A DNA stretch of 57,965 nucleotides, taken from positions 1 through 57,965 of the forward strand of contig JBEICN010000002.1 in the NCBI GenBank assembly GCA_040383945.1, given 5' to 3'. Of the stretch, positions 14,311 through 57,965 are shown piece by piece. The notes under the pieces were generated by a model. That model was given only the letters and a program-made list of their open reading frames with translations, did not search any database and had not been told where the DNA came from. Within the stretch, counting starts at the first letter, position 1; each line of letters begins with the position of its first letter. This DNA is from Candidatus Peribacteria bacterium. GTDB lineage: Bacteria > Patescibacteriota > Gracilibacteria > BD1-5 > UBA2023. The translations under genes were made by a program, and so were the position numbers.

Positions 14311-15240
14311 CTAGCTTTCAAAGGATCATATATTGAGAATTTCTATCGCCCTACGCTTGCCCTTTCCTTCTATGACTATCTCGCCGAGCTCGATAACTCA
14401 TTCGCGTGTGGCCACCAAAAGATGTTCTTCCTCTCTCCAAAAAGAACCGGGAAGGTGATCTTTTTCTCAACCAACTACATCCCATATTCTGCAATCAAGT
14501 ATTTTGCACCGCTTTCCTTGATACATAGTCCACGCACCTGGCCAAGAGGTATATGCTTGCCAAAGTCGATGTATTTGTGAGGCGGTGGTAGTTGTCCAAA
14601 AAATTTGTCCATCTTCTCGGGTTAATTTTTTTGTGTAAGTCGCGAGTGCATGATCCTGTTCTCGAATACCTATCTCCTTCGCAAGGTACTTGCGCAATGT
14701 TTGAAAAAGTATGGCTCCAGAAATTTTACAAAATTTTGTAAACAATGAATCGCTCGTTTCTTCGTCGACAATAGAAATTATAGCAGTATCCAAGATTCCC
14801 CCCTCATCCATTCATTCGGTCATTTCCATGATAGTGATACCCGTCTCGCGCTCTCATTCCAAGAGTGCTCATTGAATGGGCGAGGCTCCGCGATACTTTG
14901 GCAAGAGAGAAGCATGTACATTGATGGGCAATACCTTAGGAAGGGTTAAAATTTCAGCAGGTAAAATTTTGCCATAGGCAACAACGACCAAAAAGTCTAC
15001 CTCAAAATCTTGTAACTTGACCAAAAAATCAGGATTACCACGAATTTTCTCCGGACGAAAGAGTGTGATATTGTGACGGAGAGCGAGCTGAGACACCGGG
15101 CTTGGAGTGAGTGTTGCATGTCTTCCCACTGGGCGGTCTGGCTGACTTACGACATATACCACCTCCACATCTTCAGCAGCTATACCATCTGCAAGAACTG
15201 CGGCAGCAAGTTCTGGAGTACCAAAAAAACCTATTTTCAT
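14311..15240 (-). CDS. fmt: methionyl-tRNA formyltransferase
   Basis: MKIGFFGTPELAA...VVSQPDRPVGR...INVHASLLPKYRGASPIQ-G-ALLE. Track ORFs 14869 and 14467 are in the same frame. Ends in TAG at 14311-14313. Confidence 0.9.
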
Positions 15241-15926
15241 GAGGAAATTACATATGAAAATTTTGAATCTCAGCGGAATATATCAAGCGTCACCCCCGTA
15301 TAACTCGCTCCGCTTGCGTCATAAATAGATTTTTGAGAGCGCATATTTTTGAGTGTTACTCCCGTCATAGCATTTGGAAGTGCTATAGTTGATAAAAATT
15401 TTGTCCCGGAAATCTCTGTATCCAATGGATACACAAAGAATGTATTTTTTTGAGTTGCATCATCTGCCGTAACAATTTGCTGAGGAATATCAAAGGTGCC
15501 ACTCATCGTAAATGCAATGGTATTTGCAGGAGCATTTCTCATCTCTCGATAATATGTTCTATTCTCGGATATAAGTGCAAATCCTGGTTTGGTGGCACCA
15601 GAAAACGTCAGCACTCCGCTTTGAGTATTCCAATTATAATCAAGTCGCACCGAATCATGTACTCGATAGGTATTGGTATCTACTATGATACCGGGAGCGT
15701 CTTTGAAAAATCGCATGGAATAGTCAGAAATCACTCCTTCTGCCACTTTCCTATCCATTTCTTGAATAAGAGTTTGTATGCGCCTTTGCACAAAAGCATT
15801 TTTATTTGATTCTTCCAAAGTGCTGAAAGTTTTGAAGCCAACGACAGAAACCGTGGCAATAATAATTGTTACAATGAGTAATTCTATCAAGGAAAAACCT
15901 CACTTTGAAGACGTTTTCAGGGACAA
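15231..15926 (-). CDS. type IV prepilin-like protein (start unresolved; in frame with the upstream GT4 gene)
   Basis: Prepilin signature K-G-G|FSLIELLIVTIIIATVSVVGF, with the first Gly of the KGG pair (position -2 from the cleavage site) encoded by TGA 15900-15902. The candidate TTG start at 15924-15926 gives the leader MSLKTSSKGG. The standard-code stop TGA 15270 is read through to TAG 15231-15233. Confidence 0.7.
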
Positions 15927-17069
15927 GATTTTGGTGATAAAAACTATCACGATGATGAGGGCGATAAATAGAAGGACTTTCCCGATTTTATCGAGAAAAA
16001 CTGCAGAAATTCCAAAAAATAAAGCAATGGAGTATACAAAATTGCGAATGAAAGCGTCAGACATGCCGATCGCTTTGAGGCGATAGTGTAAATGATGGAT
16101 TCGATCTCACTTCAGCGGATTTTTCTTATTTGAAATGCGGGCAAAAATAACATAAATTGCGTCCACCAGATATACTCAAAGCGCCGTAGCGACGGTAGCC
16201 ACTTTTCCACCGACCAGTATGGCAAGAGATGCTATCATAAAAGCCAAAAACATAGTACCACTGTCTCCAAGAAGCATTTTTGGGGTAAGATTATAATACC
16301 ATGCCCAAATGAGCGAGGGAAGAAGTATCGAAAGAATACCAAAAACAAACATGGCATTTTGACGGAGCGCGGGAGTAGTATCGAGCAAATAAAAACGAAT
16401 GGTGGATATGAGTATTATAAAAAGTGTGATGGTCGTCAGTCAAATCGTAAGCCCAGGAACTCCATCACTCCAATTCACACTATTGAAAACGAGTACATAC
16501 CAAAAAATCGTAAAAAATAGAGGTATAAGAAATACTTCGTATCAAAAAAGCGAGACAGAAAAAAAATCTAAGTAGAGAATGCCTCAGAAAATATTGGATA
16601 TATAACTAATTTTTATACTGGTCAGCCCCACTATCAGTCCGACGAGAATCTGCATGGCCAATCGAACTTTTGGGGATATCGCAAATCCTGTTTTTCGAAT
16701 TTTTCAGAGGTCTTCCATGGTAAACTTCTGAGCGCTTTTTTCTGACCGATCGAACTTAAAAATAGTATCGAGGTCATCTACAAAACTCAACCCCGTAACC
16801 AATGCTCATAGTATGATCAATACTAAAAGCTTATCCGTTACCTCCATATACCCGAGCGCTATGCAAATCACGCAAACTGCTACAAAATTCAAGTATAGCA
16901 GCAATCCAAATCCAAAAGGCACCGGATCTCGATCATGTCCATATGGGCCAGGATTATCGAGAAGTCAGAATTTTCGAAACCACTTTCCTCCGAGGAAAAA
17001 CGAATAATAACTGACGATTGTTGAAAGCATTACTATCCCCAGAAATGTAATTGGATTTGCCAAAACCAT
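15903..17069 (-). CDS. glycosyltransferase family 4 (WecA/MraY-like phospho-sugar transferase); 3' boundary unresolved
   Basis: ATG 17067-17069. Polytopic membrane protein. Motifs: VNWSDGVPGL, LLGDSGTMFLAFM, HHLHYRL. There is no TAA/TAG before the prepilin domain; I checked this triplet by triplet over 15891-16178. Confidence 0.75.
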
Positions 17070-17070
17070 A

Positions 17071-17763
17071 TTATTCTTGTAATTCTTTTTGTTTTTCCTT
17101 GAGATATCCCAAAAACTCTTTTCGCTTGAACATGGCTATGTATCATACCAAAAGCAATATTACACCAAAAAAGAACCAAGATATCCAGTCCAATACTATA
17201 TCGATGTGGGTGGTAAAGAAAACTCAGAGTACCAAAATCGTACAAGACCAAATTATTGAACCTATGATATTGAACATCCAAAACTTCTCGTTCTTCATAG
17301 AAAAAGTTCCAGCGAGAAATGGAACAAAGGTGCGGGTAAAACTATGGAATTTTCATAAAATGATAAAAACCGCCCCATTTTTCTGTATTTGCTTGGATAA
17401 TATTTTTTGTTCTGTTTTACCAAGTGCAAAAGAGTCCCCGTAATTTTTTAGAAACACGAGTCCGTATCTCACGCCGAGCATGTAACCGATCCAATTTCAT
17501 AATATTGCCCCAATACATGCTCAGAGCACTGCAAGAGGGAAGTGCGACTGACCATAGAATCATCCAACCACGAGCATAATCTGCTGACCCGGCACGAGAA
17601 TCCCGATAACTGGAAAGGACTCTATCAGACTTGTTGTAAGCACAATGGGGAAATTCCAATGCCCAAGTCGCACGGAAAGATCTCCCATCCATCGGATTGC
17701 ATGCTCCGCCAAATCTGGACGAAAAATAGCGATACCCAAGAGCAGGAGCAATAACGTGGTCAT
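17071..17763 (-). CDS. dedA: DedA-family membrane protein
   Basis: ATG 17761-17763. LIESFPVIGILVPGQQIMLVVG-G-FYG... is a DedA/SNARE-associated pattern. Six in-frame TGA codons. TAA 17071-17073 lies one base before the GT4 ATG. Confidence 0.75.
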
Positions 17764-17794
17764 TCCTCACTGTAAGATTTGAACCAAAAAAGAA

Positions 17795-17848
17795 GAAGTT
17801 GATTTTTTCATGCATACACGATAGTGCAGAATCCAAAAAATCAACTTC
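17795..17848 (-). terminator. Rho-independent terminator candidate
   Basis: Perfect 14-bp inverted repeat gaagttgatttttt (17795-17808) / aaaaaatcaacttc (17835-17848). A T-rich tract follows on the minus strand. It lies just after TAG 17866. Confidence 0.5.
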
Positions 17849-21475: not shown

Positions 21476-21574
21476 TATTTGTATATTATACGACAAAAAA
21501 ACAGATCTGTAATGGTCTGTTTTTTTGACCCTTGTCAAAATATAGGGTACTCTGAGTATGGTAAACACATATCA

Positions 21575-22645
21575 ATGCAAAACACGACTATTATCGACAT
21601 CCTTGCCGACCTGGAAAACACAAATTCTTCTGTTTCAAGCGAGACACGCCTCACTGTGAATCCTGCTGAAGACCAGACTTCAATCACATCAGGTTTTGAG
21701 AAAAACGAAACTTTCATTCAACAATATGAGCATGCGCTGCTCGATTTGGAATTGGCCAATACGACAGATCTCATTTGTCAAAGCGAATCGAATACTCCAG
21801 CACAAACTCCTCACTCGTTTGCAAAAAATACCCTGTCGAATTTGAAGTCAGGGATCTCAATTTTTTCCCGATATATTACGGTATCTGGTGTGGTATTTGC
21901 GGTACTACTTCTTGCAACAAATTGGTCTGCCTACTACACGGTTGCCATTAACTTTATCCATCCGGAAGGGCTCTATGCAACGAGTCAACAAATACAAAAT
22001 ACTCTTTCAAACTCAAAAATCACCATATATGCAAACGAAGTAGGCGCCACCGTCTTTGAAAAGAAAGAAAAAGCAGAAGATATAAAAAAACAGCTCGATG
22101 CAGAAAACATAAAAGTTAACGAGGAGCCGTTTTCCATGAAAAATCTCATTCCGACAGAGCCAAATGTCTCTGCAAGATTTGATATCACCCCCTACGAAAA
22201 CAGGATAATTATTCCGCGAATAGGCAAGAATATTCCGTTGGTGGATATTTCCATGACGAGATCGTTCGATTTTGATCACATGGAAAACATCTTTATGCAA
22301 GAATTGGAGAAGGGAGTCGTGCGCTACCCAGGATCTGCGGTTCCTGGAGAAAAGGGAAATGCGTTTATATTTTGACATTCTTCTAACTATCCTTGGCTGA
22401 AAGGAGACTTTAATGATGTCTTCGCACTACTCGATAATGTGGAATTCGGGGATCAGATCATTGTATTCTACAACCAAAAGAAATTTGTATATACGGTGCG
22501 TGAGAAAAAAATCGTACGACCCGGTGATGTGAAAGTTTTAGAAAGAAATCCTGAAGCAAGAGAGCTTTCTCTGATGACCTGCTGGCCGATTGGAACGACC
22601 CTTAAGCGTATGCTCGTATTTGCTGAATTAACCGAAAACCCATAG
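21575..22645 (+). CDS. sortase (membrane-anchored transpeptidase)
   Basis: TM helix VSGVVFAVLLLATNW. Motifs IIPRIGKNIPLV, NAFIF-G-HSS (TGA 22373-22375), LSLMTCWPIG (the TLxTC Cys motif) and a conserved Arg region. Ends in TAG. Confidence 0.8.
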
Positions 22646-24085: not shown

Positions 24086-24161
24086 GCCACTTTAGCTCAG
24101 CTGGTAGAGCAACGGTCTTGTAAACCGTAGGTCGTCGGTTCGAATCCGACAAGTGGCTCCA
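24086..24161 (+). tRNA. tRNA-Thr (anticodon UGU), CCA encoded
   Basis: Cloverleaf by hand: acceptor GCCACTT/AAGTGGC, D arm GCTC..GAGC, anticodon stem ACGGT/ACCGT with loop CTTGTAA, T arm GTCGG-TTCGAAT-CCGAC. Confidence 0.9.
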
Positions 24162-24229
24162 GTAATATCAACGAGCAGGTAGCTTCGATTTGGAATACTA
24201 TATTCTAGTCGTGGCTTCTCTGTCTTTAT

Positions 24230-24314
24230 GGGTCGGTTCCAGAGCGGTCAAATGGGGAGGACTGTAAATCCTTTGGCTTCGCCTTCGTAGGTTCGAATCC
24301 TACCCGGCCCACCA
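24230..24314 (+). tRNA. tRNA-Tyr (anticodon GUA), long variable arm, CCA encoded
   Basis: Acceptor GGGTCGG/CCGGCCC, anticodon loop CTGTAAA, T arm GTAGG-TTCGAAT-CCTAC. Confidence 0.9.
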
Positions 24315-24366
24315 TTACATATCAAAAGTCGTATAGACAAGAAGTAATATTTGAAGAAAAACACTC

Positions 24367-24450
24367 GCCCGGATGGTGGAATGGTAGACACGACGGTCTT
24401 AGAAGCCGTTGCCGCGAGGTGTGAGAGTTCAAGTCTCTCTTCGGGCACCA
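24367..24450 (+). tRNA. tRNA-Leu (anticodon UAG), long variable arm, CCA encoded
   Basis: Acceptor GCCCGGA/TTCGGGC, anticodon stem ACGGT/GCCGT with loop CTTAGAA, T arm GAGAG-TTCAAGT-CTCTC. Confidence 0.9.
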
Positions 24451-24838: not shown

Positions 24839-25837
24839 TTACGGCGTAGGTTGCGCCCCAGATGCCAGAAAAAAGTTAAATATAATATAGCTCGCAACGA
24901 GAAGAAGCACTCCAATAACCACATATTTCACGATATTTTTTGCCTTTTTCATTTTCTCGTCATCTCCACCAGAAGTCAAAACCAAAAACCCAGAATACAG
25001 TATGAGAATAACAATCACCAAAGCCAAAAACCCATTGATATAGTTCACTATATCCGTAAATATGGTGATCGTTTTGGAAATATTCGGATCTTCGATTTTA
25101 CAAATATTTACCAAAAGTACTCGTTCACACTTTGCTTCGCCATAAATAGACTTAATGAGCAGACCTGGCACCTTCAATAGAAAAAACCCCAGAATCGCGT
25201 AAATGATGGTTTTTTTACCACTCTTGGCCTTTTCTTCGTCTCCGCCAGCAGTTACGATCTTATAAAATGCCAGAAATGCCATCGCAAGAAATGCAAAAGA
25301 CGCCAAAATTTCTAAGAGATGTACAAACGGGTAGAGAATTTTATCTGAGAAATTCAAAGCGAGATTACCATCTATATTTTTGTCATACAAAAGGTCTACC
25401 ACCACAAAGGCTGATTGCATGACCACTATTCCGAGGGTGGTCCAGATGATAGTTGTTTTCCATTTTTTTATGTCTTCTTCTCACCCGGCACTAAAAAGAA
25501 TTCTGAGGGCAGAAATGATGAGGTAAATGATGGCAAATCCAAATATGACATTCTTAAGATCTCTGGCGATACGAATAAACAAATAATACGCCCCTCGCTC
25601 TCCCGTTTCTTGGTAAGAAAAAAACCTAAACCCTCCGTCAGCAGACTCTACTGAGGTTTTGAAATCCGCAGTATGGTCGGCTCTATTCTGTCCACTCTGC
25701 CTCCCGACACTCTGGAGGTCCAAATTGGTAGGTTGACCGCTCGAATCTACTTCTACCGCAGCAAACGCAAACGGCACCACCAGACATGTGGTCATGAAGA
25801 TAGAAAGCAGTATAAGAACTTGAGAAAATTTTTTCAT
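24839..25837 (-). CDS. secreted/membrane protein built from three tandem T4SS-pilin-like (TrbC/VirB2-type) helical hairpins
   Basis: Signal peptide MKKFSQVLILLSIFMTTCLVVPFAFA. Three repeats of a TM helix, an (S/T)(A/S)GG(D/E)(D/E)(D/E)(K/I)xKxxK motif, then a second TM helix: ILFSAGGEEDIKKWKTTIIW, KIVTAGGDEEKAKSGKKTIIY, LVLTSGGDDEKMKKAKNIVKY. Track ORFs 25481 and 24839 join over TGA. Confidence 0.6.
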
Positions 25838-25882: not shown

Positions 25883-28795
25883 TTAATTGGTGGTAATTCC
25901 AAGTCGAGCCTCTATTTCCATATCGACATATTCTTTCTTTCGTCCATACATTTTCCGTGAATACTCCTTGATAAGCTTAGCGAGTTCGAGGTTCTTAAAG
26001 GTGTTATCCCAAATCGTTTTGAGGTCAAAAGGTCGAGTGGTGGCATTGTCGATATTCAATTTGCAATACGTAGTAAAATTTGCAATTCCGATAATATCTT
26101 GTTGAGAAAGTAGCGGCGAATATTCTTTTTCTAAGTATTCGGCATCATCCGCACCGACCTTAAAACTCATAATAGTACCAGCATTTCCAAATACCGCGTC
26201 TTTGATGGATGGTTTGCCGTCTTTATTATTGTTGCCTCCAATTTGAGCGATAAATTGATGCGCCATGATAAGGGCTAGATGGTACTTGCGGGCCTCGGAA
26301 AGAATTTCTCCAAAAGTATCTGTTGCAAAATTTTGAAACTCATCCACATAGAGAAAAAAGTCTTTTCTTTGGTCTTCTGGGGTATCGGCACGGCTCATGG
26401 CCGCCATATTGATTTTTGAGACAAATATCAAACCGAGAAGCTGGGCGTTGAGATCTCCGATCATTCCTTTGGAAAGATTCACCATCAATACTTTCTGATC
26501 ATCCATAACGCGGCGAAGATTGAAGGCGGATTTTGGCTGACCGATAATGTTACGAATCGTGGTATTGGTAACGAACGGTCCAAATTTTGAGCTGAAATAC
26601 GGGATCATTTCTTGCTTTTCTCGATCGCCAGTGTTTGCATATTCATGGTCCCAAAAGGCTTTTACTACAGGATTTTTTACCTTTGACACCTTGTACTTCA
26701 TAAACGCATCGTCAACGAACAGTCGTGGCACATCGATCAAAGTACCCCCTTCGTCATCATCGTCCATAAGCGTAAGACAACCGTTTCGGAAATAGTGCTG
26801 TATACGCGGCCCAAATATCTCCTCATTAAATATCTTAATGAAAATAGAGGTGGCATCCAGCGCTGCTCGATCTTTCTCTACGGCTCGAAGTGCTGGATCT
26901 GTTGCGATAATCTCGAGCATGTTCAGCCCCATTGGGCGTTCAAAGTCTCCAGGATTGAATATGACAATATCTTTGACTCGCTCTTTCGGAGTAAATGCAA
27001 TAATATCTTCTACCAGGTCACCATGAGGATCGATAACCGCAAGTCCGTCACCATTCCAGAGGTCTTGACGAGCAAGGTAGGAGAGAAATACTGACTTTCC
27101 TCCTCATGATTTTCCAATGATATAATGGTGTCTTCCTCGGTCTTTTCGAGAAAAATATACGGGAGTTTTCACATTACGATATTCGTTCCAGCCCATAAGC
27201 ACGCCGTCTGTATACAAGGGAAATCCTGCAAGTTTACGTGGTACATTAATCTCTACCGGCTGTTTTCCTGGATCTATGGTTTTTCCCTTGTTATCTCCAT
27301 CCTGATGGACTGGATAGGCCGTTCCATCAACACCATAAAAACTTCTTTGTTCATCGCGGACCAAGACTTTGTTCTCATCAACCTGCAAAAGCGTTCCATC
27401 TTGAGTAAAGACTTTGCCCGAAGGATCTCGTTTGTAATCTGAAAGCACCAACGGGTTTTTGAGAGTCTTAAGATTGTGGGGTGGTGCGAGCATTTTATAA
27501 TCCAACCACTTGATAATGGGAGATTTGTTGTAGTTGATATCAGGAAAATGGTACAAAGTGGAAAGTTCATCTACTGAAAAAACTGACTTGGATTGTAAAA
27601 ATCCAATCATGCGAAAGCGGTAGGCAAAATAACGGATTGGCGTAAAGATGAATGCGAGCAAATCCTCCCACTGTGGATTATCAAGCTTATTGTTGTACTC
27701 ATCAGTATACATAGACATGGCGCCAACCACTGACTCTAGGGCATTTTTGGTACTTTCTTGATCTTCTGAAGAAACGAGCAGTCGAACCGAAACCAAGAAC
27801 GCTGGCTGCCCCGCAGACTCTCCAACTGCCTTGTGGGACTCTTGTTCCGCTTGGTTGAATATTTTGTAAGAGTCTCACGAACTCGCACCAGGAGCACTGG
27901 TGCCATCCTCTTTCCCCGTGCTAAAAAAATCAACGAGCCAAATCAAAAATGCAAACGGCGCCTTGATGGCTTCCCAAAGAAAGTTTGCTTTGTACCCCTT
28001 GGTGTACTCACCTTTTGCTACTTTACTCGCCGCAGTTTTAGCATGGCGATTCCAGGCGCTTCATCGTGGCTTGATAACAAACTGAAGTGCGGCGTTATCA
28101 AACTTTTTCAAGGTACCAAAATTGTTCGTCAAAGTAGAAAGCGGATCATCCTCAAAATACTTGTATGTTTTAATTGGGAAAATATCATCATTAATTTTGC
28201 CAATAGAAGAAGCTCTCAGTGTATAATTATCTGGTTTGATATCAGGAAACTCGGAGGCGGGTATTTCTTTTACTTCAGCATCGGGGTAGTTGGAAGTAAT
28301 CTGCTGTGAGACCAAGTGCACATAATCACGGTACGTCACTACAAAAAATGAAAGCTGCCCCTTGTTATAGACCAACTCCATGGATATTTTGGCGTGATCA
28401 AATATAAAATCGCGAACGCTATCCCAGAAGGTAATATTCGAAATTTTGATAATTGATTTATAGAAAATGGACATAATTCCCATTTTTTCCTTAAAATCCT
28501 TTTTCGTCTCTTTTTCTTTGTCTAATTTGGAATCGGCTCGCGGTAGTGTAATTTGCATGTATACCAATCGACGGGCATTGTAAATTTCATACATGATTCG
28601 CATGAGCTTCAAGAGCAAATATCCCAGGAATATGAGGAGCAGGATTAGCACGATCTTTTCCGAAAGGAACAACAGAAGATCGCCTACTCCGAGTCAAGTG
28701 TCGGGAGTGGGTGAAGCGCTTGGGGTAGTTGTGGGCCTATTTGAGACGCCGGAAATACCGGCAGCCTCAGCTGTTGCTATAAATTGATGTATCAT
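25883..28795 (-). CDS. membrane-anchored VirD4/TraG-superfamily (FtsK/HerA-like) ATPase, paralog A (970 aa)
   Basis: Track ORFs 28061, 27104 and 25883 are in one frame. N-terminal TM helix. Walker A IIGKS-G-GGKS (TGA 27104-27106), AVIDPHGDL, Walker B FFLYVDEFQNF, and a coupling-protein-like KYHLALIMAHQFIAQ. Starts at ATG 28793-28795 and ends in TAA at 25883-25885. Confidence 0.8.
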
Positions 28796-32033: not shown

Positions 32034-32459
32034 TTGTCAAAAAAAAGCGATTCTTGAGGAAATCTTTAAGTGTATAAAATTAAAGGAAAGTCCCGATGCT
32101 ATTTTTAAAAGGCGAAGCCTAATTTTTCGGTACGATGTGGCAGTAGAAAGATTCATATTTGAGGGAATGTATACTGAATTATGGTGAATAGTAAATGTAG
32201 GGAATATTGACTTTGAGAAATTCTGTCGTTATATGGGTATATGTCAATACGAAAACCTGAGGACAATCTTTGGTTCCATGTATACCAACTCGTAGTTGGA
32301 TTTTTTTCGGTTATACGAAACATGTTACTTATGATTGTTGACAGGATACTTCGCAAAAAAACCAGCCGGAGAGTTGAAGCAAATCATCTCCTTTCGAGTC
32401 TACATTTTCTGGCGTATCAATTTCCAAAATCCTTTTGGAAAAAACCTACCGGAATAGGA

Positions 32460-33755
32460 ATGGGGAGAGGGATTGGCACTATCATGCTCTATTTTTTGGG
32501 GAAACGTGTATTTTTTTTGGAAAAAACGGGTTCTAGCGAAGATTTGGCATCAACCACGACTGACACGAAGGGGGCTCCATCTATCCATAATTCTGGATTC
32601 ACACTCATTGAGATGATGATCTCCATAACTCTATTTTCAGGCATACTTATCGGAGCATTTTCAGCATTTGGAAATATCACTCAGTTGAAAAACAAGGTCA
32701 TTGCTGATGTTGATGTATATGAGCAATTGTATGTAGCTGTGGAAAGCCTAAATACCTTGATCAAAGATGGATGAGATATCGATTATGAAGAATATTTCAA
32801 CCGATCCCTCGTCGGCACAACGCTTTCTGGCTGACACTATGTGACATCAAGCTGATTTGGAAATTTTGGCGCTGGATGAGCCATATCTGCGACTCCGAAT
32901 TTTGGCGATGATGTCTATTATTGTCGAAGTATTGTTGGATCTAGTGTTACCAATGCAGGATGTGCCTTGACGGGCGCACTCAATACCAGTGGGAATTCTC
33001 AAGCAGGAAGCATGCAAAGATATGGTCAGTATCAGCTCCAATTTACTGACTTTAATAGCCCAGGGAACAACGATACTCAGCTTTGTACCAACAAAGTTCC
33101 TTCTATACCAGGGATGCCACTGGGCGATGAAGATTGTGATGGGAACATTACCGGAGACTCCGACGATGAGTCGCTCGGACTTTGACCGGTAGCCTTTCCT
33201 CAAAATACAGCAATGCCCGAATTATATCTCATCAAAAAAAACAGCTCCAATCCGACGCGAATTTTGATCCGACTGAAGATAGAAAGAGATCCAGACGCTC
33301 CAGCAACAGCCCATTGTAATACTCAGGCTGGAACTGGTACGGGTTGTATTGGAAGACTTCAGATATTACGACTGATCGGAAGAGATCTTGGGGCAAGCCA
33401 TGGGTCGGGTAGTAGAAGTTACAACGGAAGAATTGACACTTGGGAATGTCAGCCCGATTTCCCATGTGTCACCATGCCAAATCAAACACTCGATGGTGTA
33501 CAGCGATATTTGCCAACTGGGAATGCTTCAGAATGGGTTGATATTTTTAGCAAGGATATTTCGGTAAATTCGGCAAATTTCTTTCTCAGTCCTAATATCG
33601 ATTATACCCTTGCGTGGAAGGGAGGATCTGATATGCTCGCAAACTCCATGCTTCGCATGCAGTTACGACTTGGATATAGTTGGAAAAAAAGGAAGCTGGT
33701 ACAGTTTAGGGTGCCAGAAATCGACGTCACCACCACTATCAACCTTAGAAAATAA
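32460..33755 (+). CDS. large Cys-rich type IV pilin-like protein (start uncertain)
   Basis: Prepilin motif NSG|FTLIEMMISITLFSGILIGAF. Track ORFs 32241, 32967 and 33213 are in one frame. Possible starts: 32241, 32460, 32484, or a TTG nearer the cleavage site. Four Cys pairs and an acidic DEDCDGNITGDSDDE loop. Ends in TAA at 33753-33755. Confidence 0.7.
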
Positions 33756-35788: not shown

Positions 35789-36765
35789 ATAACCTGTCCT
35801 ATGGGATTCATAGTATCTCTGAGGTATTCGCGTATCATGAGATATCGATCCTCGATGAGCACCATGAGAATATGAGAAGCGTACGTTTGCTCAAAATCTC
35901 GATATGCATCAAATGCATCATCAAATACTCTTTGGGTATGGGCAATTTCGTTTGTGGCTCGACTGGAAACACTTCCCAGTGAAGCCGCCAAAGACTCGCT
36001 GCTTGGAAATCTCTCGTACGGAGCATTGGGATCAGCCTGACGCTGTGCTCGGAGCTTATCCTCGTTTTGAATCACTCTAGACAATTGATTTTTGACATTG
36101 TCGTCAACATATTTGAGATAATGTCTATAATTACAGTACTCCATGGTCGCCGAGCGTATAAGAGATCGCTTCATACTGAGCTCAGCGCCATCGCCCTCCT
36201 CTTTTGATACATTTTTACATCCACGCTGTTTCATCTGTGATTCTATTTGCTGAGTTGCTCGCTCCAAATTGCGCACCATATTGGTGCCTTCTGGATGAAA
36301 TTCTTTCACGAGCCTCGTGTGAATTTTGTACTTGGTGTTGAGAACTGCACACGCATAAAGTGCGTTCATTCGCTCTTTATATACGAGAGAAGCCTTTTCG
36401 ATTTGGGAAGCGAGTGGGAGATTCTGGCTCTCTAGCGCAATAATTCCTTGGATCTCTAGTGGATCCGCCTTTATGGCATCAATACCTTCTCTAAACTTTT
36501 TATCTGCGTTGGCATCGTATATATCGGGATAAAAATATTCCGGAAAAACAATAAGATCCTTTGGGATTTCCTGCTGCGAGCCTATCGGTGAGTTCCAAGG
36601 AGCGGCGCTCTCTCACTTAGCGTAGCAGAGAGTCTTCACAGACTCTGTATAGCTTTGATGCGTATAAAGTCCAGGGGCATCAACTGCCCAAAGGGGCAAT
36701 GAAATTCCGCACAAGCTCAAGGCAAAGCAAAGACGCAGTGGTAAAAAAGGGCCTACATGACTCAT
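35752..36765 (-). CDS. secreted ORFan protein (337 aa) coupled to ATPase B
   Basis: ATG 36763-36765 overlaps the stop of ATPase B by 13 nt. Signal peptide MSHVGPFLPLRLCFALSLCGISLPLWA. Helical body. Ends in TAG at 35752-35754. Confidence 0.55.
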
Positions 36766-39149
36766 ATTCTAAAATTAATTTCCTTCTCTATAAATTCTCG
36801 CTCCCGACCGTACTTCAAACGAGAAATCTCACGGTAGGCTTTTGCAAGCTTGGGGTTTCCTGCTTCAAGATACGGATTAGTTGGAGTTAAGCTAAATGCT
36901 GTCGAAGGTTGTCCATCAATGGCAATTTTTGTCACTCATTTAAATTTATCCATATTCACCAGATCCATATCTGAAAATGCCGGACTAAACTGCTTGGCGA
37001 GAAATTCTGCATCCTCTGGGCCAACCTTATACGCCATCATGGACCCCACATTACCAAATATCGCATCTTTAAGATTTACATTGGACTTCGTAAGTGCATC
37101 TGACTTCTGGAGTTGCCCCAGATACTGATGGGCCACAATAAGTCACAATCGATACTTTCTGGCCTCTGAAAGTATCGATTCGATAGACTCGGTGATGTAA
37201 TTTTGAAATTCGTCAATATACAAGAAAAAATCGTGTCGATCTTGTCGATCAATGCTCTGTCGTCGCATAGCAGCCATTTGGATTTTTGATACCAGTATCA
37301 GTCCCAAAAGATTGGAATTAAAATCTCATAAAATCCCTTTGGAAAGATTAATAAAGAGTATCTTTGATGTCTGCATACAGTCATACACATCAAACGAGCT
37401 TTTGGTCTGACCGATGATGTTACGCATCAGTTTATTAGTAATAAATCCTCCGAACTTTGCTGCAAAATATGGGATAATTTCACCCTTTTCTCTTTCTCAC
37501 ATTTTCGCATATGTTTGGTCCCACCAACCACGAACGACAGGATCTTTGAGGGTTCTTCTGCGCTCCTTCTGAAATTCATCATCCGTAAAAAGTCGAAGTA
37601 TGTCCGTAAGGGCACAGCCACCGGGATAATCCATCAAAGTGAGCACTCCATTGCGGAAATAGTCTTGTATTCGAGGACCAAATATTTCGGAACCAAAAAG
37701 CTTGATCATAATGTTGAGCGCGTCTTGCGCCACTATTTGCTTCTCGTCGTCAGATGCTGCCTCGAGGATATTAATTCCAAGAGGTCGCGCCATATCTGCA
37801 GGATCAAAGTAGACAATATCGTCAGACCGAGACTTTGGAACAAACGGAAGAAGATCTTTGGCAAGATCCCCGTGAGGATCGATAACCGCAAGTCATCGTC
37901 ACGAACGAATATCCTGCCGTGCCATCGATTGGAGAATAGACGACTTCCCCGTACCAGTCTGCCCCACCACATAAAAATGACGGAAGCGGTCTTCATTCTT
38001 AAGAAAAATATCCTTTGTGACTCCTTGATAGGTATTAGTTCCGAGTAGCAACCCTTCAGTTGGTATATTGATTGGAGCCTTTACGATTTTGAAGTTTTGC
38101 CAGCGAATTTCTGCTATACGATTGTATTTGGAATGAGGAAAATGAAAGAGGGACGCGAGCTCCTCGGTCGTAAAAATGGTGGAATGCGAAGAGTTGGAGG
38201 ATCTCGCGAGATACTGTGTCAAAAATTGATCAAACGCACGAATTCGAGTAAGTTTGAGACTGTTATATCCGGGAGCACCGTACTGGGCATATGCAGCGGC
38301 AATGTTCGAGACGATGGACTCTATAGAATTTTCTTGGACCCCTGCAGCAAGCACCCGTATCGAAGTCCGAAACCCCGTCTTCTTCGCTTTTTCACGTATT
38401 CACTCCTTCTCAGTGAGGTGATCGTCAGAGTCGTGGGAATCCTTTGAATCATGATCGTCTACTCCACCAAAAAGTGTTCCAAAAAGACTTCCAATTCCGA
38501 ACCCATGGTGTGACTTTCCGAGCGACTTTTCAAACTTAAGTGCTTTGGATTGCCAAGTATCATGCATGGGAGATATGGCGATTTGAACTACCGCACTCTC
38601 AGCAGAAGAAAGCTTTGCCAGGGCTCAGAATACGGCATTCATGGGATCAGACTCGAGCTTTTGGTAGGACTTGATCGGCTCAAAATATGATTTTTTGGTT
38701 ATGAGCTGTCACCCTCTCACAACATTGCGCCCCTCAAATATGTTGAGCTCATCAACTGCTTCAACAAGCGCATCGGAGTACATGCTCGTAATGAGCTTCT
38801 CTATCGATCCTCGGATACTTGCCGGGGTCACGACTATCAAAGAAATTTCTCACGCATGAGACACTACCTCAAGCGACAGACTCGTATTGCCAAAAAAACG
38901 ATTGAGAAATCCGGCCTCACTCAAAGATCGAAAGCCCACCAGCAACTGCTCCATAAGACTGATCTGCTCCTTGAAATCGCGTGTAGTCTCTCGCTTCTCA
39001 TCACTATCACTATCTTTGCGTGGCAAAAGCACTCTCAAAAAAACAATGTCCAGCATTTGATCAAATCGACGTCGCCGATAATACCACGCAAGCCATATGG
39101 CAAAAACGATACAAATTCCGAGGGGAATTGCTACAAGGATTCCATTCAT
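36753..39149 (-). CDS. membrane-anchored VirD4/TraG-superfamily ATPase, paralog B (798 aa)
   Basis: Track ORFs 38850, 37899, 37497 and 36936 are in one frame. N-terminal TM helix. Walker A VVGQTGTGKSS, RS-G-R-G-LAVIDPHGDL, Walker B FFLYIDEFQNY, and KYRL-G-LIVAHQYLGQL. It is collinear with paralog A, including the N-terminal L(L)PR.DS...K/RE..DFKE motif. Confidence 0.8.
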
Positions 39150-39256: not shown

Positions 39257-42200
39257 CTAGAAGCTAAGAACCGCGCCAGCAACAGTGTAGCTATCAGAAG
39301 TATTGATAGTACCAGAAGCACCACCATTAGAATCTGTATAGCTGTATGAAACAGCATTAGTTCCAGAAGCCACACCTTGAACTCCTTCAAGAGAAGTACC
39401 GAAAGTGAGAGTTCCATTTGAAGGAGGAACGATACTAGAAGTATCAGCTCGAACCATAAATGTAACAGTTTGTCCAGCAGTAACAACGATAGCAGAAGCA
39501 AAAGTGAATGTAACATCACTTCCACTTACAGAACCAGTTGCGTAGTCAGTATTGTTGTATCGGAGTCGGTAGTTGGATCCAGATGCAGATGCATTACCAG
39601 AAAGGCGAACCTTAATAGCAGAAACTGAAACATCTCGAGTTCCTTCAGCCTTAATTGAGTAAGTCGCGATATCGTGATTGGTGCTTCCTACAACCTTTCC
39701 AGATGGAGTAGGCATAGTAGAAGCGAGAACAACCTTTGAATCTTGAACCAACATAGTAGCAGAAGGAGCAACAGTATTGGCAATAACATTAGAAGCAAGA
39801 GTAGAAAGATTTCCACCAGCAACTCCAGTATATTCAATAGCCGTAGGTGCAATTACCACTTCTCGACCCTTTTCGAGAGTTACAGAAGCAGTAGTGTCAG
39901 CTCGAACTGAGATTGACTTAGTACCTGCCTTAGGAATTACGAAGTTAAGACCCGTAAATTGAGCAGTGTTACCAACGAAGGTAGCAGTAGCTGAACCAAT
40001 TTGAGTTGAACCATCAAAAAGTTTTACATTAGTGAGGTTTCGTCCAAGATCAGTAACTCCAGTTAGAGTAGATCCTGTTCCAAGATTGAGTTTATCAAGT
40101 CGGATATCTTCATTGTTTGATGCTCGAACCTTGAATCAGAGAATTTCAACATTAGTCATTCCAGCAACAAGAATTTGCTTAGAAGGAGTAAGTGAATCAG
40201 CCTCAACGGTAAGAGTACCATTTGAAACGATTGAAACAGCTGAAGAAGATGCATTTGATGCAGGACCAGTTACGGAAACTGCAGTCTTAACACCTACAGC
40301 AGAAGTTCGACCAGATTCAAGAATTACCTGAAGTGATGTTGCAGTAGCAGCAGAAGTTACATCAGCGTAAACATCAATGGTAACCGTAGAGTTAGCTCCA
40401 ACATTGAGAGCACCTGCATTTACAGAGAAAGTGTTTCCTGTAGATTGTGGGTTAGCTACAGATGTGGCAATAGAGTTAACACCTACCTTAAGGGTAAGAT
40501 TGTTAATACCAGTCACACCTCCTGAAAGGGCTACTCCAACGGTAGTAACATTGAGATCATCAGCATTGGAAGCTTGAAGATTGAATGAACCAATCTTAGC
40601 GTTTGACTGTCCCTTAACGAGATTAGTCGTGCTGAATCCTCCATTTGCCGAAGCAGTAAGAGCAACATTTTCTACAGCAATAGTGTTTCCATTAGTACCT
40701 GTAAGAGTAAGTGTCTTGATTGAGTTGGACGAAATGAGCTTGTAAGAAGCGTCAATAAGTTCAGCTCGGTAACTATCTGAACTTGTAGCAGAAGTACCGA
40801 TAGAAGCTACGATAGCAACCTTAGCCGTAGCTCCAGCCTTGATGGTGAAGTAGGTGGAAAGGTAACCAGTATTTGCTCCAGACCCGTAGTTAGCTGCGTT
40901 AGCAGCATCCGTAGAGAATACTGTTTGTCCATCTACCGTAAGCTTAAGGGTTCCTCGGAGATTTGTAGTACCAGAAACTTTATTCACCTTGAAGTTAAGT
41001 TTTTGGAATTCCATATCCTCACCAGATGCCTTAACATCGAATGTTCCAAGAACTACATCATCAATACCAGGAGCAGCGCTCTGTGATCGTGAATCAGTAG
41101 CCTTAGCTACAGTAACTGTACCCTCTCGAACCTTGTACCAGTATTGGGTAGAAGGAAGAGAAGTAGCAAGAACGTAGTTTCCCGTAACCGCACCCTTAGC
41201 TACGATATCAAAATCATCTCGGATCTTTGCAGAGAAAGTTCGAGTTGAATTGTATTTACCAGTAGCTACTGAAGCCTTAACGGTGAAGAATCGGCTAGAA
41301 CCTTGAGGAATAGTGTAAGGAGCAGTAAATTGGAAATTTACATATCGTCCTACAGAAGCTGTTGCAGAAGCAAGAACATTTCCTTCTTGTGAAATAATTT
41401 GGAAAGTATCAAGGTCTCCGTCAGAAACAGAACCTTCTACGAACACATTAACTCCTTCAACAACGAGGTCTTCCTTAGAGTTCGTTTGCTCAACCTTGAA
41501 CTTTGCTACCTCAGTAGATTGTCCAATGTCGAGGGAAACTGCAGCACCCTCAGTTGAAGCACCACCTACTGCGATTGCAGTAACGTTGTATTGAACGAGA
41601 GCAGAAGAACCGTCAACTACAGAGTGAACTGCAGAAGAAACTGGAGCACCAGTAACAGTACCACCAGCAAGAACCTTAGAAAGAGTAAGACCTACGGTAC
41701 CAGAGTAAACTCCAGATCGTACATTGAGTGCGATAGTAACCGTCTTAGTTTCACCAGCCTTGATTTGAAGTGGAGTAGTTCCAAATGAAACGGTAGCCTT
41801 TCCATCAGAAGTGAGAGATTGAGCAACGTTTCCAAGTCGTGAACCACCTACCCAAGCTGAGATACCTGCAACATTAGTGTTGGAAAGGAGTCCAGATCGA
41901 GTAACTTCAACACCAGTAACCGTAGCATCCTTAGATCCAGCCTTGATGTCTACCACAAGAACCTTGTTGTAAGCAGAACCAGTTGCAAGGGTAGTTGCAG
42001 CAGGAGTAGCAGGATTTACAGAAACCATAACATCACCAGTAGCAACGGTGGTATCAGTACCAACGGTTACACCAGTATTTGTTGTAGGAGTTGTAGGAGT
42101 GGTAGTTCCAGTGTTAGTATCTGGAGTAACTGGAGGCTCAACCATATCAGTAGTGTCAAGCGCAAGAGCACCTGCAGCTACCTTGAATGCTTCACCACGA

Positions 42201-42748
42201 GTTGAGGTAGCATTTGGTCGGAATGAAGTACCAGACTTAATAAGCCCTTCTTCAACCGCAGCGTTAACGTAACCGTAAAGGTCACCCATAGACGCAGGAA
42301 CATCAGTGAAACCAGCAGAAACATCAGTAGGAGCTACTCCTCGGGCAGAGAGAAGCATCTTTACCATTTCGGCTCGAGTAACGAGATCCATTGGTCGGAA
42401 TTTTGCATTAGCTGATGAAACAATTTCAAGATCAGCTGCAGCTTCGATGTATCCACAAAGGTCACCCAAAGCAGAAGTTACATCAGAAAAGTAGTTTCCT
42501 GCACATTCAGCTGCTGATTCATCAGCGAGCTTAACTGCAATTTTTGCCATTTCAGCTCGAGTGATATTATCACCGAGTCGGTATCCGGCTTCGCTAGACT
42601 GAGTGTTAATAACACCAGCTTCAGCAAGGGCTTCAGCATTAACGGCAAACTCAGAAGCTGCGAGAGCGGTGAGCGATGAGCTCATTGCCGTTGCAACGAT
42701 TGCGAGTGCGCTAGTTGTTGAAGTTACCTTTTTAAAAAGATTACTCAT
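39257..42748 (-). CDS. S-layer-like surface protein: signal peptide, three SLH-type repeats, Thr/Pro linker, then tandem beta-sandwich-like repeats (1163 aa)
   Basis: MSNLFKKVTSTTSALAIVATAMSSSLTALA. SLH-like segments ..ITRAEMAKIAV.., ..VTRAEMVKMLL.., ..STRGEAFKVAA... Linker PPVTPDTNTGTTTPTTPTTNTG. Recurrent modules of the form xLGxFxVxAsxxEDhxhxxhxh. Track ORFs 40136 and 39257 join over TGA 40136-40138. Confidence 0.85.
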
Positions 42749-43163
42749 AGAGCGACTATAAGTTAAGAATAAAATATCGTACTGCATGAATCTTGGGTCT
42801 GCCAACCTTCAAAACATGTCTACGACCAGGTATACTTCCTGGGAAGTTAAAGCTTTAACCTCTGTAAGTTTCCTTGACGAGAGGAAACATTCGACGATTG
42901 TTTTTCAAGCGCAAAATATTTCCTCCCGTTTTCAGAAGCGGGAGGAGGAAAAGAAGATGTTCAATTTGATACGCGTTCGCACACGTACTCCGTCGTTTTG
43001 AACAAAACAACGGATGCAGAGAGTGTTAACGAACGTGAAAAGGATTGAACACCTTTTCGTGCCTCGAATTATATAGAGAATGGAGTGATGTCAAACGCAA
43101 TACTGGGCTCTTCACACTTTTTTCACACATCATTCGGGGAAGAACGCGTCTTCAAACTAGAGC

Positions 43164-55619: not shown

Positions 55620-56326
55620 TGGACACTTTTGACAACTTTGACTCTATAGACATATCTCAAGAGAGTCAATGAAGCAGTCCCGAGAAACCCGCAGAGGCTG
55701 CGAGAGAACACAGCGAAAAACAGAAAGAAAAGGCTTCTAGGGCGCTTTCTGGAATACGTCGAACTCAGAAGGATGAGAAAAAAAGCAAGAGACATTCCAC
55801 TTTGCTTGCGAGGATCATATCTCATATTGTGGAAAATGATGATCGAAGTGCGGCACTTCCGAATGTGCTCGAGTTGTTGGAGCTTGGAGTGCCCTCAAAC
55901 ATCATTATTAGCTTTTGTATTATCATCCATCCCACATCGCTTGAAATAGTTTTGTGAGAATTTGGATACTCCAATACTTTTCCCAAGCTTCGACCAAGAA
56001 GTCAGCCAGTAGTATTTGATGCAGATCAACTTACTGTTGATGAAAAAAATTATATCAATCTTTGGTTGGAAATAGTTTTTGTGATTATTACACAAGAAGT
56101 ATCAAGCGTGATGACTTGTAGATTTTTGGAGCAGCTCCGTTGAGATAAAAGAAAAAGCATAGTCAATTCTCTTACCGTATTTCTCTCCCTATTTTTTGAA
56201 TCAATCAACATAAAATCTACTACCGATCTCCATGCTTATGCAAACTTCATCATTGATCAGATGGAGCTCAAGATTCATCAGATACCACTGGAAGATGTAG
56301 ATACCTGAGAGAAAATCAACTGGTAA
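55619..56326 (+). CDS. hypothetical protein (235 aa)
   Basis: The ATG overlaps the glyA stop (TAATG). Acidic, disordered N-terminus followed by a hydrophobic/helical body. Four in-frame TGA codons. Ends in TAA at 56324-56326. Confidence 0.45.
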
Positions 56327-57575
56327 TTCCAAAAATTACAAAAGCGAATAAGGATTGTAGTTGTGGATCAAATTGTATTTGCATCGGCAGAGCTGAGAGC
56401 ACTTCAGCAACTTTGTGTATCCATGCGAGTGTAAAATAGGGGATATATCACAGCGCGTATCACACCGATGAATTGATAGCATCAGCAAGTATAGCAAATC
56501 CTCATAAAAACATTGAAATCTGAACCGTGGGACCAACGAGTATATTTGCGGGTATAGACCAAAGGTGAAAGGTTCAAAATGTGCCGATGCTGATGGGAAG
56601 TGTCCATATTCCTGCAAATATACTTACGCCGAGAGCTTGCAATAGTATACCTTTTTTTCTAAATGCTCGAATGCTTACCAGGATTCCGAGAGTAGCGAGA
56701 AAGGACAACTGAAATCCGGCATCGTATATCAAGCTCAACGGAGAGGAGAGAGTAAGCACCACTGCGGTAAATAGTAAAATTCTAAAAGAATCAACCCTAT
56801 CTCCGTAGGCCAGTGCTACCAAAGATATACTTCCCATGACTAGGGCTCGTAGTACCGGCGGATCCACTCCGACGAGTAGCACATAGATGCCTACTCATAT
56901 CAGGCTTATGATTATTTTGAGATACTGAGAAAGTTTGGCAAGCAGGAGTCCAAGTATGGCGAGTACGGCTGCGATATTTGAGCCGCTCACCACAGTAATA
57001 TGGCTGAGTCAAATACTTCTGTATAAATTGGTAAAATCCTCATCCATCAGGCTATCATCACCTACCAGAATTCCGTTTAGCAGCGCAGACTCCGGATGAG
57101 GAAACAGCCTTGTTATTTGATCCTTAATAGAGTTTCTTATGTGTAAGAGTCCATATCATCGCTGGAATTCACCTATCTTGTATTCCGAATACTTTACCTC
57201 TCAAATACTACCGCGTGAGAACTGGAATAGTCCTCACTTTTTTAAGGAGACCTCACTAAAGGTTACCTTTCTTCCGAGTGAAGAGGTGTGCTGAGACGGA
57301 ATATAGGCGTATACCTTTTCTCGATTTTCCAACTCAATCGTAGCTCGCTTTTGTCATTTTTTTGAACTTCAAACATCTACAATAATCCCAGAAATTTCTT
57401 TTTTATCCTGAAAAAATTTTTGGACTGCTTCTTGTTTTGTATGCATTGAACTTACATGGAATTGTATCAGCACCCCTGCAAGCAGAGGGAGTAGAGATCC
57501 AAAGCAAAGAATATACCTTTTTGAAATGAGTCAAAATAGCAGAACTCAGCCTCATAACCCCAGACTCCAATACAA
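56220..57575 (-). CDS. comEC: competence protein ComEC/Rec2 (channel domain only; start unresolved)
   Basis: GLSHITVVSGSNIAAV, then DAGFQLSFLATLGILV (ComEC competence-domain motifs), preceded by an OB-like region. The frame is open from about 57679. The first canonical start in frame is TTG 57573-57575. TAG 56220-56222 lies inside the convergent gene. Confidence 0.75.
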
Positions 57576-57679
57576 AATTTGATCCAGAGAAACACTTAAA
57601 ATAGCACACGAAAATAAAAAAAGGAAGGAAAAGAAGATGAAATATTTTCCATTTCAAAATCCAGTGGACCCGCCTGCTT

Positions 57680-57965
57680 CTACTTTACTCCTTTGGAGTA
57701 ATCCTGCATGTCCTGTTTTACTCTTCCCTCTATCTTCTGAATTTTTCTGAGCAGCCATATTCCAGATATAAGAATACCGATTATGGAGCCAACCTGCGTG
57801 AGATTCACCCCGAGCGTTATGCGAAATATATCTTCCGTTCCCGAAAAGAATTCTCCAATTAATAGGAAAACCGAAAACATGCCGATCCCCATATAGCCGA
57901 TGAATCCTGGGATTCTAAATAGCTCCTTGGCAATATAGAGAATGGTAAAAGTTACAAACGAGAGG
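57680..57965 (-). CDS. membrane protein, C-terminal part (gene enters from beyond the window end)
   Basis: Open frame from base 57965 to TAG 57680-57682. Two hydrophobic helices (IGMFSVFLLIGEFF, VGSIIGILISGIWLL). Confidence 0.4.
   Translation of the reverse strand, partial: LSFVTFTILYIAKELFRIPGFIGYMGIGMFSVFLLIGEFFSGTEDIFRITLGVNLTQVGSIIGILISGIWLLRKIQKIEGRVKQDMQDYSKGVK

Follow-up and report, generated by a model that had tools for sequence, protein, structure and literature searches.

How does an integral-membrane sugar transferase come to share one reading frame with a type IV pilin-like protein, and what would become of the product? The question is raised by the minus strand of a 57,965-nucleotide stretch of contig JBEICN010000002.1 from a Candidatus Peribacteria bacterium (assembly GCA_040383945.1; this whole stretch is called the window below). 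Here a gene of the MraY/WecA polyprenyl-phosphate phosphosugar transferase superfamily (PNPT) reads in frame into a domain that begins with a class III (prepilin) signal (Table 1). We found the fused open reading frame (ORF) to be almost certainly real and conserved. As to its product, the case for a natural polyprotein, in which the whole enzyme with its 11 transmembrane (TM) helices serves as the 'prepilin leader' and an internal class III signal is cut to give two membrane proteins at 1:1, is in our view evenly balanced.

One reading frame for two proteins

Counting TAA and TAG alone as stops, the frame on the minus strand begins at 17135 and stays open down to the TAG at 15231-15233. The 612-codon ORF within it contains 11 in-frame TGA codons, that at 15900-15902 among them. 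With table 11 the ORFs of the window are shattered, and long ORFs appear once TGA is taken as sense. TGA sites of the window were compared with the homologous codons in 36 related loci: 187 of the 235 non-TGA cases were glycine codons (GGN) and none was a tryptophan codon. Because relatives have Gly codons, never Trp, at these sites, the genetic code is 25; TGA as a stop and TGA as Trp (code 4) were ruled out by the same comparison. The best-matching genomes carry the labels Candidatus Gracilibacteria or Patescibacteria. Both the 612-residue read-through frame of the initial annotation, with its coordinates, its codons and its lack of in-frame TAA or TAG, and the reading of TGA as Gly were thereby confirmed. 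Gene callers using table 11 or table 4 split or mistranslate the locus. Within the window no tRNA-Gly(UCA) was detected; a tRNA cluster at 24086-24450 on the plus strand comprises Thr(TGT), Tyr(GTA) and Leu(TAG).

The junction region (15700-16150) is spanned without an indel by contigs of three independent sequencing runs on freshwater or groundwater samples, from three different studies, which settles, at contig level, the doubt about the assembly that had been raised at first. The same in-frame architecture recurs in seven further loci for which DNA is available, no two of them from one sample or genome: L006 (SRR8088698, 98% identical to the window), L001 (SRR22387765), L004 (SRR22387779), L005 (DRR424548), L007 (CAIVSN010000142), L008 (JAQTZK010000034) and L009 (JAVHRB010000073). 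It is also seen in the protein fragments P0006, P0109, P0111 and P0117; the fused set comprises at least 11 distinct sequences. The codon that faces the TGA of residue 390 is an ordinary Asn, Ser or Arg sense codon (AAT, TCA or CGC-type) in six relatives (L001, L004, L005, L007, L008 and L009), and L006 is the only one of the seven with DNA to have TGA; a hidden TGA stop therefore cannot explain the fusion.

The transferase half matches PF00953 at residues 82-286 with 47.6 bits (cutoff 27; Pfam). The Pfam name of this family, 'Glycos_transf_4', denotes the PNPT superfamily, which is distinct from CAZy family GT4. Canonical cytoplasmic motifs of PNPTs are DDxxD, N-x-x-N-x-x-D-G-x-D-G and a His-rich HHxH loop. 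In the DDLD of the fused protein D98 and D99 are nearly invariant among orthologues, HHLH is likewise conserved, and loop 3 reads NSVNWSDGVPGL, with the first Asp present and Pro replacing the second Asp of the canonical motif. The core of this loop, NWSDGVPGL, is the majority consensus of most Gracilibacteria orthologues, N199, S201 and D202 being near-invariant. Full-length orthologues are P0001 (612 amino acids (aa), 98% identical) and P0002 (610 aa, 72% identical), and in some source databases orthologues are named UDP-GlcNAc:undecaprenyl-phosphate GlcNAc-1-P transferase. Searched by sequence against the PDB, this half gave no matches with phmmer and none with a profile search, and the NCBIfam MraY equivalog did not match the ORF. 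A fold search (Foldseek) with the AlphaFold2 (AF2) model of P0002 retrieved MraY structures with an E of 4e-9 and a target-normalised template-modelling score (TMt) of 0.73-0.76, and DPAGT1 with a TMt of 0.55-0.61. On this evidence the enzyme half belongs to the PNPT superfamily and has putative phosphosugar transfer activity; its predicted topology is that of the WecA/TagO type. Its C-terminus is complete, as had been annotated: the tail ...VFITKILSL is kept in both fused and unfused orthologues.

The class III signal of the fused ORF reads KGG/FSLIELLIV (the slash marks the predicted cleavage site here and below). TIGR02532 (IV_pilin_GFxxxE; NCBIfam) matches residues 390-411 with 18.7 bits, above its cutoff of 16.3; PF07963 scores 19.1, slightly below its cutoff of 21.2. 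The motif codons are TGA 15900-15902 for Gly390 (-2), GGT 15897-15899 for Gly391 (-1), TTT 15894-15896 for Phe392 (+1) and GAA 15882-15884 for Glu396 (+5). The TGA does supply a glycine of the motif, as had been stated, at -2; the essential glycine at -1 comes from the GGT, and the TGA is incidental, relatives having N, S or R at -2. The signal proposed in the initial annotation is genuine. The motif begins at residue 391, behind 11 TM helices, and the short hydrophilic leader at the N-terminus, which is a defining feature of prepilins and which the unfused orthologues have, is not found here. An exhaustive HMMER search of 1.84 billion proteins returned 16 representatives of the pilin-like half at E <= 1e-3, against 5 matches in a word-based homologue search; judged from these sequences, the family is very small and fast-evolving.

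A second protein with a class III signal is encoded in the window at 32181-33755 (plus strand). It reads …IHNSG/FTLIEMMISITLF, with the G-1 codon at 32595, and scores 23.6 bits with PF07963. The motif is preceded by 162 open codons and followed by a mature part of about 385 aa. Leaders counted from the nearest canonical starts would have 18, 27 or 34 aa (TTG) or 38 or 46 aa (ATG), unusually long for a prepilin.

Origin of the fusion and selection on its halves

Stand-alone transferase orthologues (366-395 aa) all end in ...VFITKILSLKK, followed by TAA or TAG, and the nearest relatives without the fusion have a pilin-like gene of its own (~225 aa) that starts at, or a few bases from, the transferase stop. 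Stop and start form TAATG in L002 (AAG AAA TAATG AAA AAT GGA TTT, giving MKNG/FTLVELL), L003 (MQRG/FSLIEIL), L013 (MKRG/F) and L087 (MRG/F). The junction is TAACATG in L011 and TAGCATG in L012 (MKG/F), and TAGATG in L010 (MVSQKA/F). Of the about 78 scorable loci among 86 related ones, 7 carry the fusion and 41 lack a pilin-like gene; in the other 30 it is a separate gene immediately downstream of the transferase. The stand-alone pilin-like homologues P0108, P0110, P0112, P0115 and P0121 each lie between the transferase gene and the methionyl-tRNA formyltransferase gene (fmt) in all contexts examined. No independent second fusion elsewhere in Gracilibacteria was found among the 86 loci; L078, which had the appearance of a fusion in tblastn, consists of two overlapping genes.

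A neighbour-joining tree built on the transferase domain alone groups the fused loci in one clade, with the unfused TAATG loci L002 and L013 as its sister. The linker of L001, AAG AAT GGA TTT (K-N-G-F), matches the leader of L002, ATG AAA AAT GGA TTT. As the old K-x-G leader is still readable in the fused linker, two coupled genes must have merged at TAATG. The comparison shows an ancestral state in which a WecA/TagO-like gene ending in ...TKILSLKK-TAA overlapped (TAATG) a partner of ~225 aa with a minimal signal of the MKNG/FTLVELL type, and in which a small change at this junction lost the stop and merged the frames of two already translationally coupled genes. Read in this way from the aligned codons, the linker is a remnant of the ancestral prepilin leader, and the tree indicates a single fusion event, kept since, in one clade of Gracilibacteria. 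The initial annotation had looked to related genomes for conservation of the fusion or for real stops: one clade keeps the fusion throughout, and its outgroups have separate genes with real TAA or TAG stops.

Some features of the unfused loci deserve mention. Many pilin-like partners have Ala instead of Gly at -1 (L010, L016, L017, L022, L023, L039, L067 and L078), and others, with Gly at -1, have leaders of just 3-4 residues (MKG/F, MRG/F, MKNG/F). In L014 (JANOQA010000148.1, locus position about 5057) the pilin-like gene lies in the +1 frame directly after CAC AAA AAA TAA, with no ATG, GTG or TTG ahead of A/FSLVELL; a non-canonical start (ATC), a frameshift in the A-run or a recent defect is possible. 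L015 and L070 lack the pilin-like gene and have fmt immediately after the transferase (TAATG in L015), so the partner is dispensable in some Gracilibacteria.

Within the fused clade the transferase half has a ratio of non-synonymous to synonymous substitution rates (dN/dS) of 0.04-0.06 and the pilin-like half one of 0.05-0.17, with synonymous sites saturated between sublineages. The eight fused loci with DNA all agree at seven positions (G-1, F+1, S+2, L+3, E+5, L+6 and L+7), and every fused sequence has G-1, F+1 and E+5. Positions -2 to -7 vary freely. The linkers have 6-9 residues of variable sequence, and the frame is always kept (KTSSKGG, KTTSKNG, KHPAKSG, KNPGKSG, KGNNRRG, NTKSQSKSG, SPKKSTNGG, KNAKSG, KNTGKSG and KGNKQG). 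The substitution pattern indicates purifying selection on both halves and retention of the fusion by selection.

Fate of the fused product

Hydropathy and the positive-inside rule predict 11 TM helices with the N-terminus outside, and a segment 392-412 that crosses the membrane outwards. DDLD, NWSDGVPGL and HHLH lie in K/R-rich inside loops, and because two TM helices come after the His loop, the tail ...TKILSL and the basic linker are placed in the cytoplasm. The AF2 model of the full-length orthologue P0002 (predicted local distance difference test (pLDDT) 85, predicted template-modelling score (pTM) 0.72) likewise has 11 TM helices. Its linker (385-393) is a coil among the lower-confidence parts (pLDDT about 65-70), followed by a single 51-residue helix (394-444) and an all-beta head with pLDDT >90. 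The stand-alone partner P0108 was modelled (pLDDT 88) with a 50-residue helix (H7-56) and a beta-rich head, again with pLDDT >90. For comparison, the 'lollipop' fold of type IV pilins consists of an alpha1 helix of about 50 residues and a globular head on an antiparallel beta-sheet. A fold search of the pilin-like head against the PDB gave no significant match, the best being weakly Ig/FN3-like with E >= 0.02. Hydropathy and model both place the junction on the cytoplasmic face, the topology that the initial annotation had proposed to check. The predicted geometry, with the linker inside, the helix passing from inside to outside and the head outside, would be what prepilin peptidase needs.

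Prepilin peptidases cut after a conserved Gly (or Ala) at the cytoplasmic membrane face (PMC4471445, PMC10191384); Gly-1 is critical for processing, and Glu5 is dispensable for processing and required for assembly (PMC4471445). From the motif and the models we predict, leaning towards it by a little, that prepilin peptidase splits the precursor between Gly391 and Phe392. It would be inserted co-translationally as a 12-TM protein, and the prepilin peptidase of the cell would then cut after Gly391. The products would be a transferase ending in ...KGG and a mature 221-residue pilin-like protein starting from Phe, in a fixed 1:1 ratio, the enzyme having acted as a 391-residue 'leader'. Cleavage is the best-supported mechanism because the motif is correctly oriented and the residues for cleavage and assembly are kept while the upstream part drifts. 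A prepilin peptidase is plausibly present in this organism, as suggested by the second class III protein in the window and by the reported expression of type IV pili in Gracilibacteria (PMC11452946).

Several points weigh against cleavage. Known prepilin leaders consist of 6-26 hydrophilic residues and the signal has been described as invariably N-terminal (PMC4471445, PMC10191384), as opposed to the 391 residues and 11 TM helices found upstream of it here. The 58-kb window has no prepilin peptidase gene and no pilus-assembly gene. We know of no prepilin-peptidase substrate with a polytopic N-terminal domain, and the peptidase might refuse it. Since the head has no match to solved pilins, the protein may not be a filament subunit. 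G-1 and F+1 could be kept for structure, e.g., as a helix cap or a turn between TM11 and TM12. No RNA-seq runs covering the locus were listed, and proteomic data on it were not found either.

A permanent, uncut fusion is a possible but more doubtful alternative. The pilin-like helix would then be TM12 and would tether a beta-rich extracytoplasmic domain to the transferase; the ancestral partners would already have been a membrane complex, now hard-wired (a 'Rosetta-stone' fusion), and the motif would be a relic or serve packing. The tight and widespread PNPT/pilin-like pairing with its stop/start overlaps suggests a physical or functional complex of this kind. The head unlike that of any solved pilin, with its weakly Ig/FN3-like matches, also fits a tether, as do the pTM of 0.72 for the full-length model and the lack of a peptidase gene within the window. 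A permanent fusion does not account for G-1 and F+1, which stay unchanged in at least 11 sequences despite saturating divergence and freely varying linker positions next to them, nor for the conservation of the buried Glu at +5, which in pilins serves assembly and not membrane anchoring (PMC4471445). The very short ancestral leaders (3-4 residues) and the Ala at -1 in some relatives speak for an uncut fusion; however, prepilin peptidases accept both Ala and Gly at -1 (PMC10191384), and the outgroups therefore still look like substrates.

It is improbable that the pilin-like protein arises by internal initiation in the linker or TM11, with a short-leader prepilin as the product and the fusion as a minor or tolerated by-product. 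The initial annotation had offered TTG 15924-15926 as such a start, giving the leader MSLKTSSKGG, and a TTG does stand 10 codons before F+1 in the window, L006 and L004. It is not conserved: the Leu codon is CTC or CTT in L001 and L005, which have no ATG, GTG or TTG in their linkers. Counted from G-1, the closest canonical start in frame is 10 to 58 codons upstream, depending on the fused locus (16 in L001 and L007, 23 in L005, 27 in L009 and 58 in L008), and most of these starts fall inside the hydrophobic TM11 or before TM10. With start codons absent or shifted in relatives, the TTG was rejected as a conserved mechanism. None of 50 predicted starts in the window shows Shine-Dalgarno (SD) use, and a missing SD motif is thus no argument against an internal start. 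A scan for promoter-like sites gave 6 against 7.7 expected from shuffled sequence, and neither promoters nor terminators were enriched over such sequence. Internal initiation would moreover leave the transferase with a pilin-like tail, and the frame kept open across linker indels in every lineage would be unexplained.

Whereas 12.5% of random 14-mers contain an SD-like 4-mer, none of the 50 predicted window starts, taken from a rough greedy selection of ORFs, has one at -18 to -5; translation in this genome appears to start without the help of SD motifs. The GAGG before the TTG at 15888-15890, the start of a table-11 'ORF' (15270-15890), was accordingly rejected as an SD motif; in addition, L001 and L005 have CTG in place of this TTG.

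Table-11 gene callers do break the locus at TGA codons (P0103-P0105), but an artefact, in which an indel merged two genes or TGA 15900-15902 really ends the transferase, is effectively refuted and most improbable: assembly error is ruled out by three identical, indel-free assemblies and eight fused loci (window included) from different samples, TGA aligns with Gly throughout, the facing codon is sense in six relatives, and both halves are under purifying selection in one frame.

If the precursor is cleaved at Gly391/Phe392, it would carry the first known internal class III signal and be a natural probe of prepilin-peptidase specificity. The peptidase would read only the membrane-proximal G/F...E helix and be indifferent to the upstream part, and the locus would point to an unrecognised functional coupling, in Gracilibacteria, of an undecaprenyl-phosphate glycan pathway with a pilin-like protein of the envelope. 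If it stays uncut, the fusion would still be a Rosetta stone that ties a lineage-specific pilin-like protein of the envelope to a transferase initiating glycan synthesis. The rules that govern prepilin-peptidase substrates upstream of Gly-1 are poorly known, and the fused protein is a ready-made natural test of them, as it is of the insertion of a pilin helix as a twelfth TM helix versus an N-terminus targeted by the signal recognition particle. In either case it gives a clue that the WecA/TagO-like initiating transferase has as its working partner a fast-evolving pilin-like protein restricted to Gracilibacteria, and offers a lead into the envelope biogenesis of an uncultivated, host-dependent lineage.

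Gene neighbourhood and comparison with known systems

The conserved gene order is DedA/VTT - PNPT - pilin-like - fmt - ABC2 permease - methyltransferase - PLD. The adjacency of the DedA-family and PNPT genes is kept in all relatives examined. The DedA family includes undecaprenyl-phosphate flippases (PMC9876793, PMC10127716), and the adjoining gene is consistent with an undecaprenyl-phosphate-dependent pathway. At the other end, the last 10 nucleotides of the fused ORF are shared with the start of fmt (15231-15240; tcATGAaaaTAG) in a classic ATGA stop/start overlap. As TGA is Gly in this genome, the fused ORF extends two codons past the ATGA to its TAG. The partnership of PNPT and pilin-like protein across Gracilibacteria, in the order DedA - PNPT - pilin-like - fmt, is an association; as to a joint role, the pilin-like protein may be glycosylated, or the two may contribute to an envelope structure of the pseudopilus type that is connected with an undecaprenyl-phosphate-linked glycan pathway. 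An oligosaccharyltransferase of the Wzy_C/PglL type was not found in the conserved gene neighbourhood.

Other envelope- and transfer-related genes of the window are included in Table 1. In Firmicutes, SLH proteins bind secondary cell-wall polymers, the synthesis of which is started by a TagO/WecA-type enzyme. By analogy, synthesis of a polymer for the binding of the SLH-domain protein would be a possible role for the transferase.

Table 1 Features of the fused locus and other genes of the window
Feature	Position	Strand	Remarks
Whole fused ORF	15231..17069	-	612 codons; ATG 17067-17069; stop TAG 15231-15233; code 25
PNPT body (WecA/MraY-like, Pfam Glycos_transf_4), residues 1-384	15918..17069	-	11 predicted TM helices; N-terminus outside, C-terminus inside
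DDLD (DDxxD motif), residues 98-101	16767..16778	-	K/R-rich inside loop; sequence reading
NWSDGVPGL, residues 199-207	16449..16475	-	PNPT cytoplasmic loop 3
HHLH, residues 325-328	16086..16097	-	Last cytoplasmic loop; followed by two TM helices
TTG (Leu382), candidate internal start	15924..15926	-	Not conserved as start codon
Linker KTSSKGG, residues 385-391	15897..15917	-	Basic; predicted cytoplasmic; modelled as coil
Predicted prepilin-peptidase scissile bond, Gly391/Phe392	15894..15899	-	Putative cleavage
Pilin-like module, residues 392-612	15234..15896	-	Helix of about 50 residues, then all-beta head
alpha1N/TM hydrophobic segment, residues 392-412	15834..15896	-	Glu396 at +5
Methionyl-tRNA formyltransferase gene (fmt)	14311..15240	-	PF00551/PF02911 on orthologues; ATG 15238-15240
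DedA/VTT-family membrane protein gene	17071..17811	-	PF09335 on orthologues; stop one base before PNPT ATG (TAA-T-ATG)
Sortase	21512-22645	+	
T4SS_pilin (PF18895) protein	24839-25837	-	
VirD4/TraG-like coupling ATPase	25883-28795	-	Pfam
Second VirD4/TraG-like coupling ATPase candidate	36753-39149	-	Similar by eye
SLH-domain surface protein	39257-43126	-	About 1,200 aa
ComEC	56220-57758	-	

Compared with PNPTs of the WecA/TagO/WbpL type, and with their solved relatives MraY and DPAGT1, the enzyme half is alike in PF00953, DDxxD, HHxH and fold. E. coli WecA has 11 TM helices and a cytoplasmic C-terminus, and MraY has 10 TM helices; the fused enzyme shares the predicted topology of the former, unlike the latter. 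It differs from these enzymes in the additional 221-residue pilin-like module past the C-terminal tail, in a sequence too divergent for sequence searches to lead to the PDB, and in loop 3, where NWSDGVPGL has Pro for the second Asp of the canonical DGxDG. A precedent for the role in pilin glycosylation suggested in the initial annotation is the WbpL to TfpO/PilO pathway of Pseudomonas aeruginosa 1244, in which the initiating PNPT feeds pilin O-glycosylation. The two systems would be alike in having an initiating WecA-family enzyme functionally upstream of a pilin; the P. aeruginosa genes are neither fused nor adjacent, whereas here they are fused and the conserved neighbourhood has no oligosaccharyltransferase.

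With type IV pilins and pseudopilins (TIGR02532/PF07963/IPR012902) the pilin-like half shares G/F(S/T)L(I/V)E with Glu at +5, the hydrophobic stretch of ~21 residues, a predicted helix of ~50 residues and a predicted beta-rich head, and its unfused orthologues have an ordinary, though very short, N-terminal leader. In contrast, the signal of the fused protein is internal, behind 391 residues and 11 TM helices, its head is without detectable similarity to solved pilin heads, and its tiny family is linked to a PNPT gene in every context examined. In the modular pilins (e.g., PilB of Streptococcus sanguinis) the pilin module is N-terminal and an extra module, located C-terminally, is displayed on the filament (PMC8179133). 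Both architectures join a pilin module to an unrelated domain by evolutionary 'tinkering', but the polarity is reversed here, with the integral-membrane enzyme N-terminal and the pilin-like module C-terminal. As it lies upstream of the cleavage site, the enzyme module cannot be part of a filament subunit.

In our literature search, the coverage of which is incomplete, we found no paper on this architecture and none co-mentioning PF00953 and PF07963. A parallel to the predicted polyprotein is the fbcH cytochrome b-c1 precursor of Bradyrhizobium, a polytopic/secreted polyprotein which is split at an internal class I signal into products at 1:1. Both have, in a single ORF, a multi-spanning protein and after it a partner that brings its own signal; that of fbcH is a class I signal cut by leader peptidase at the outer face, whereas the putative class III signal described here would be cut by prepilin peptidase at the cytoplasmic face. 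Set against these systems, the locus joins proteins of two known kinds in an arrangement that is new, a conserved fusion of single origin.

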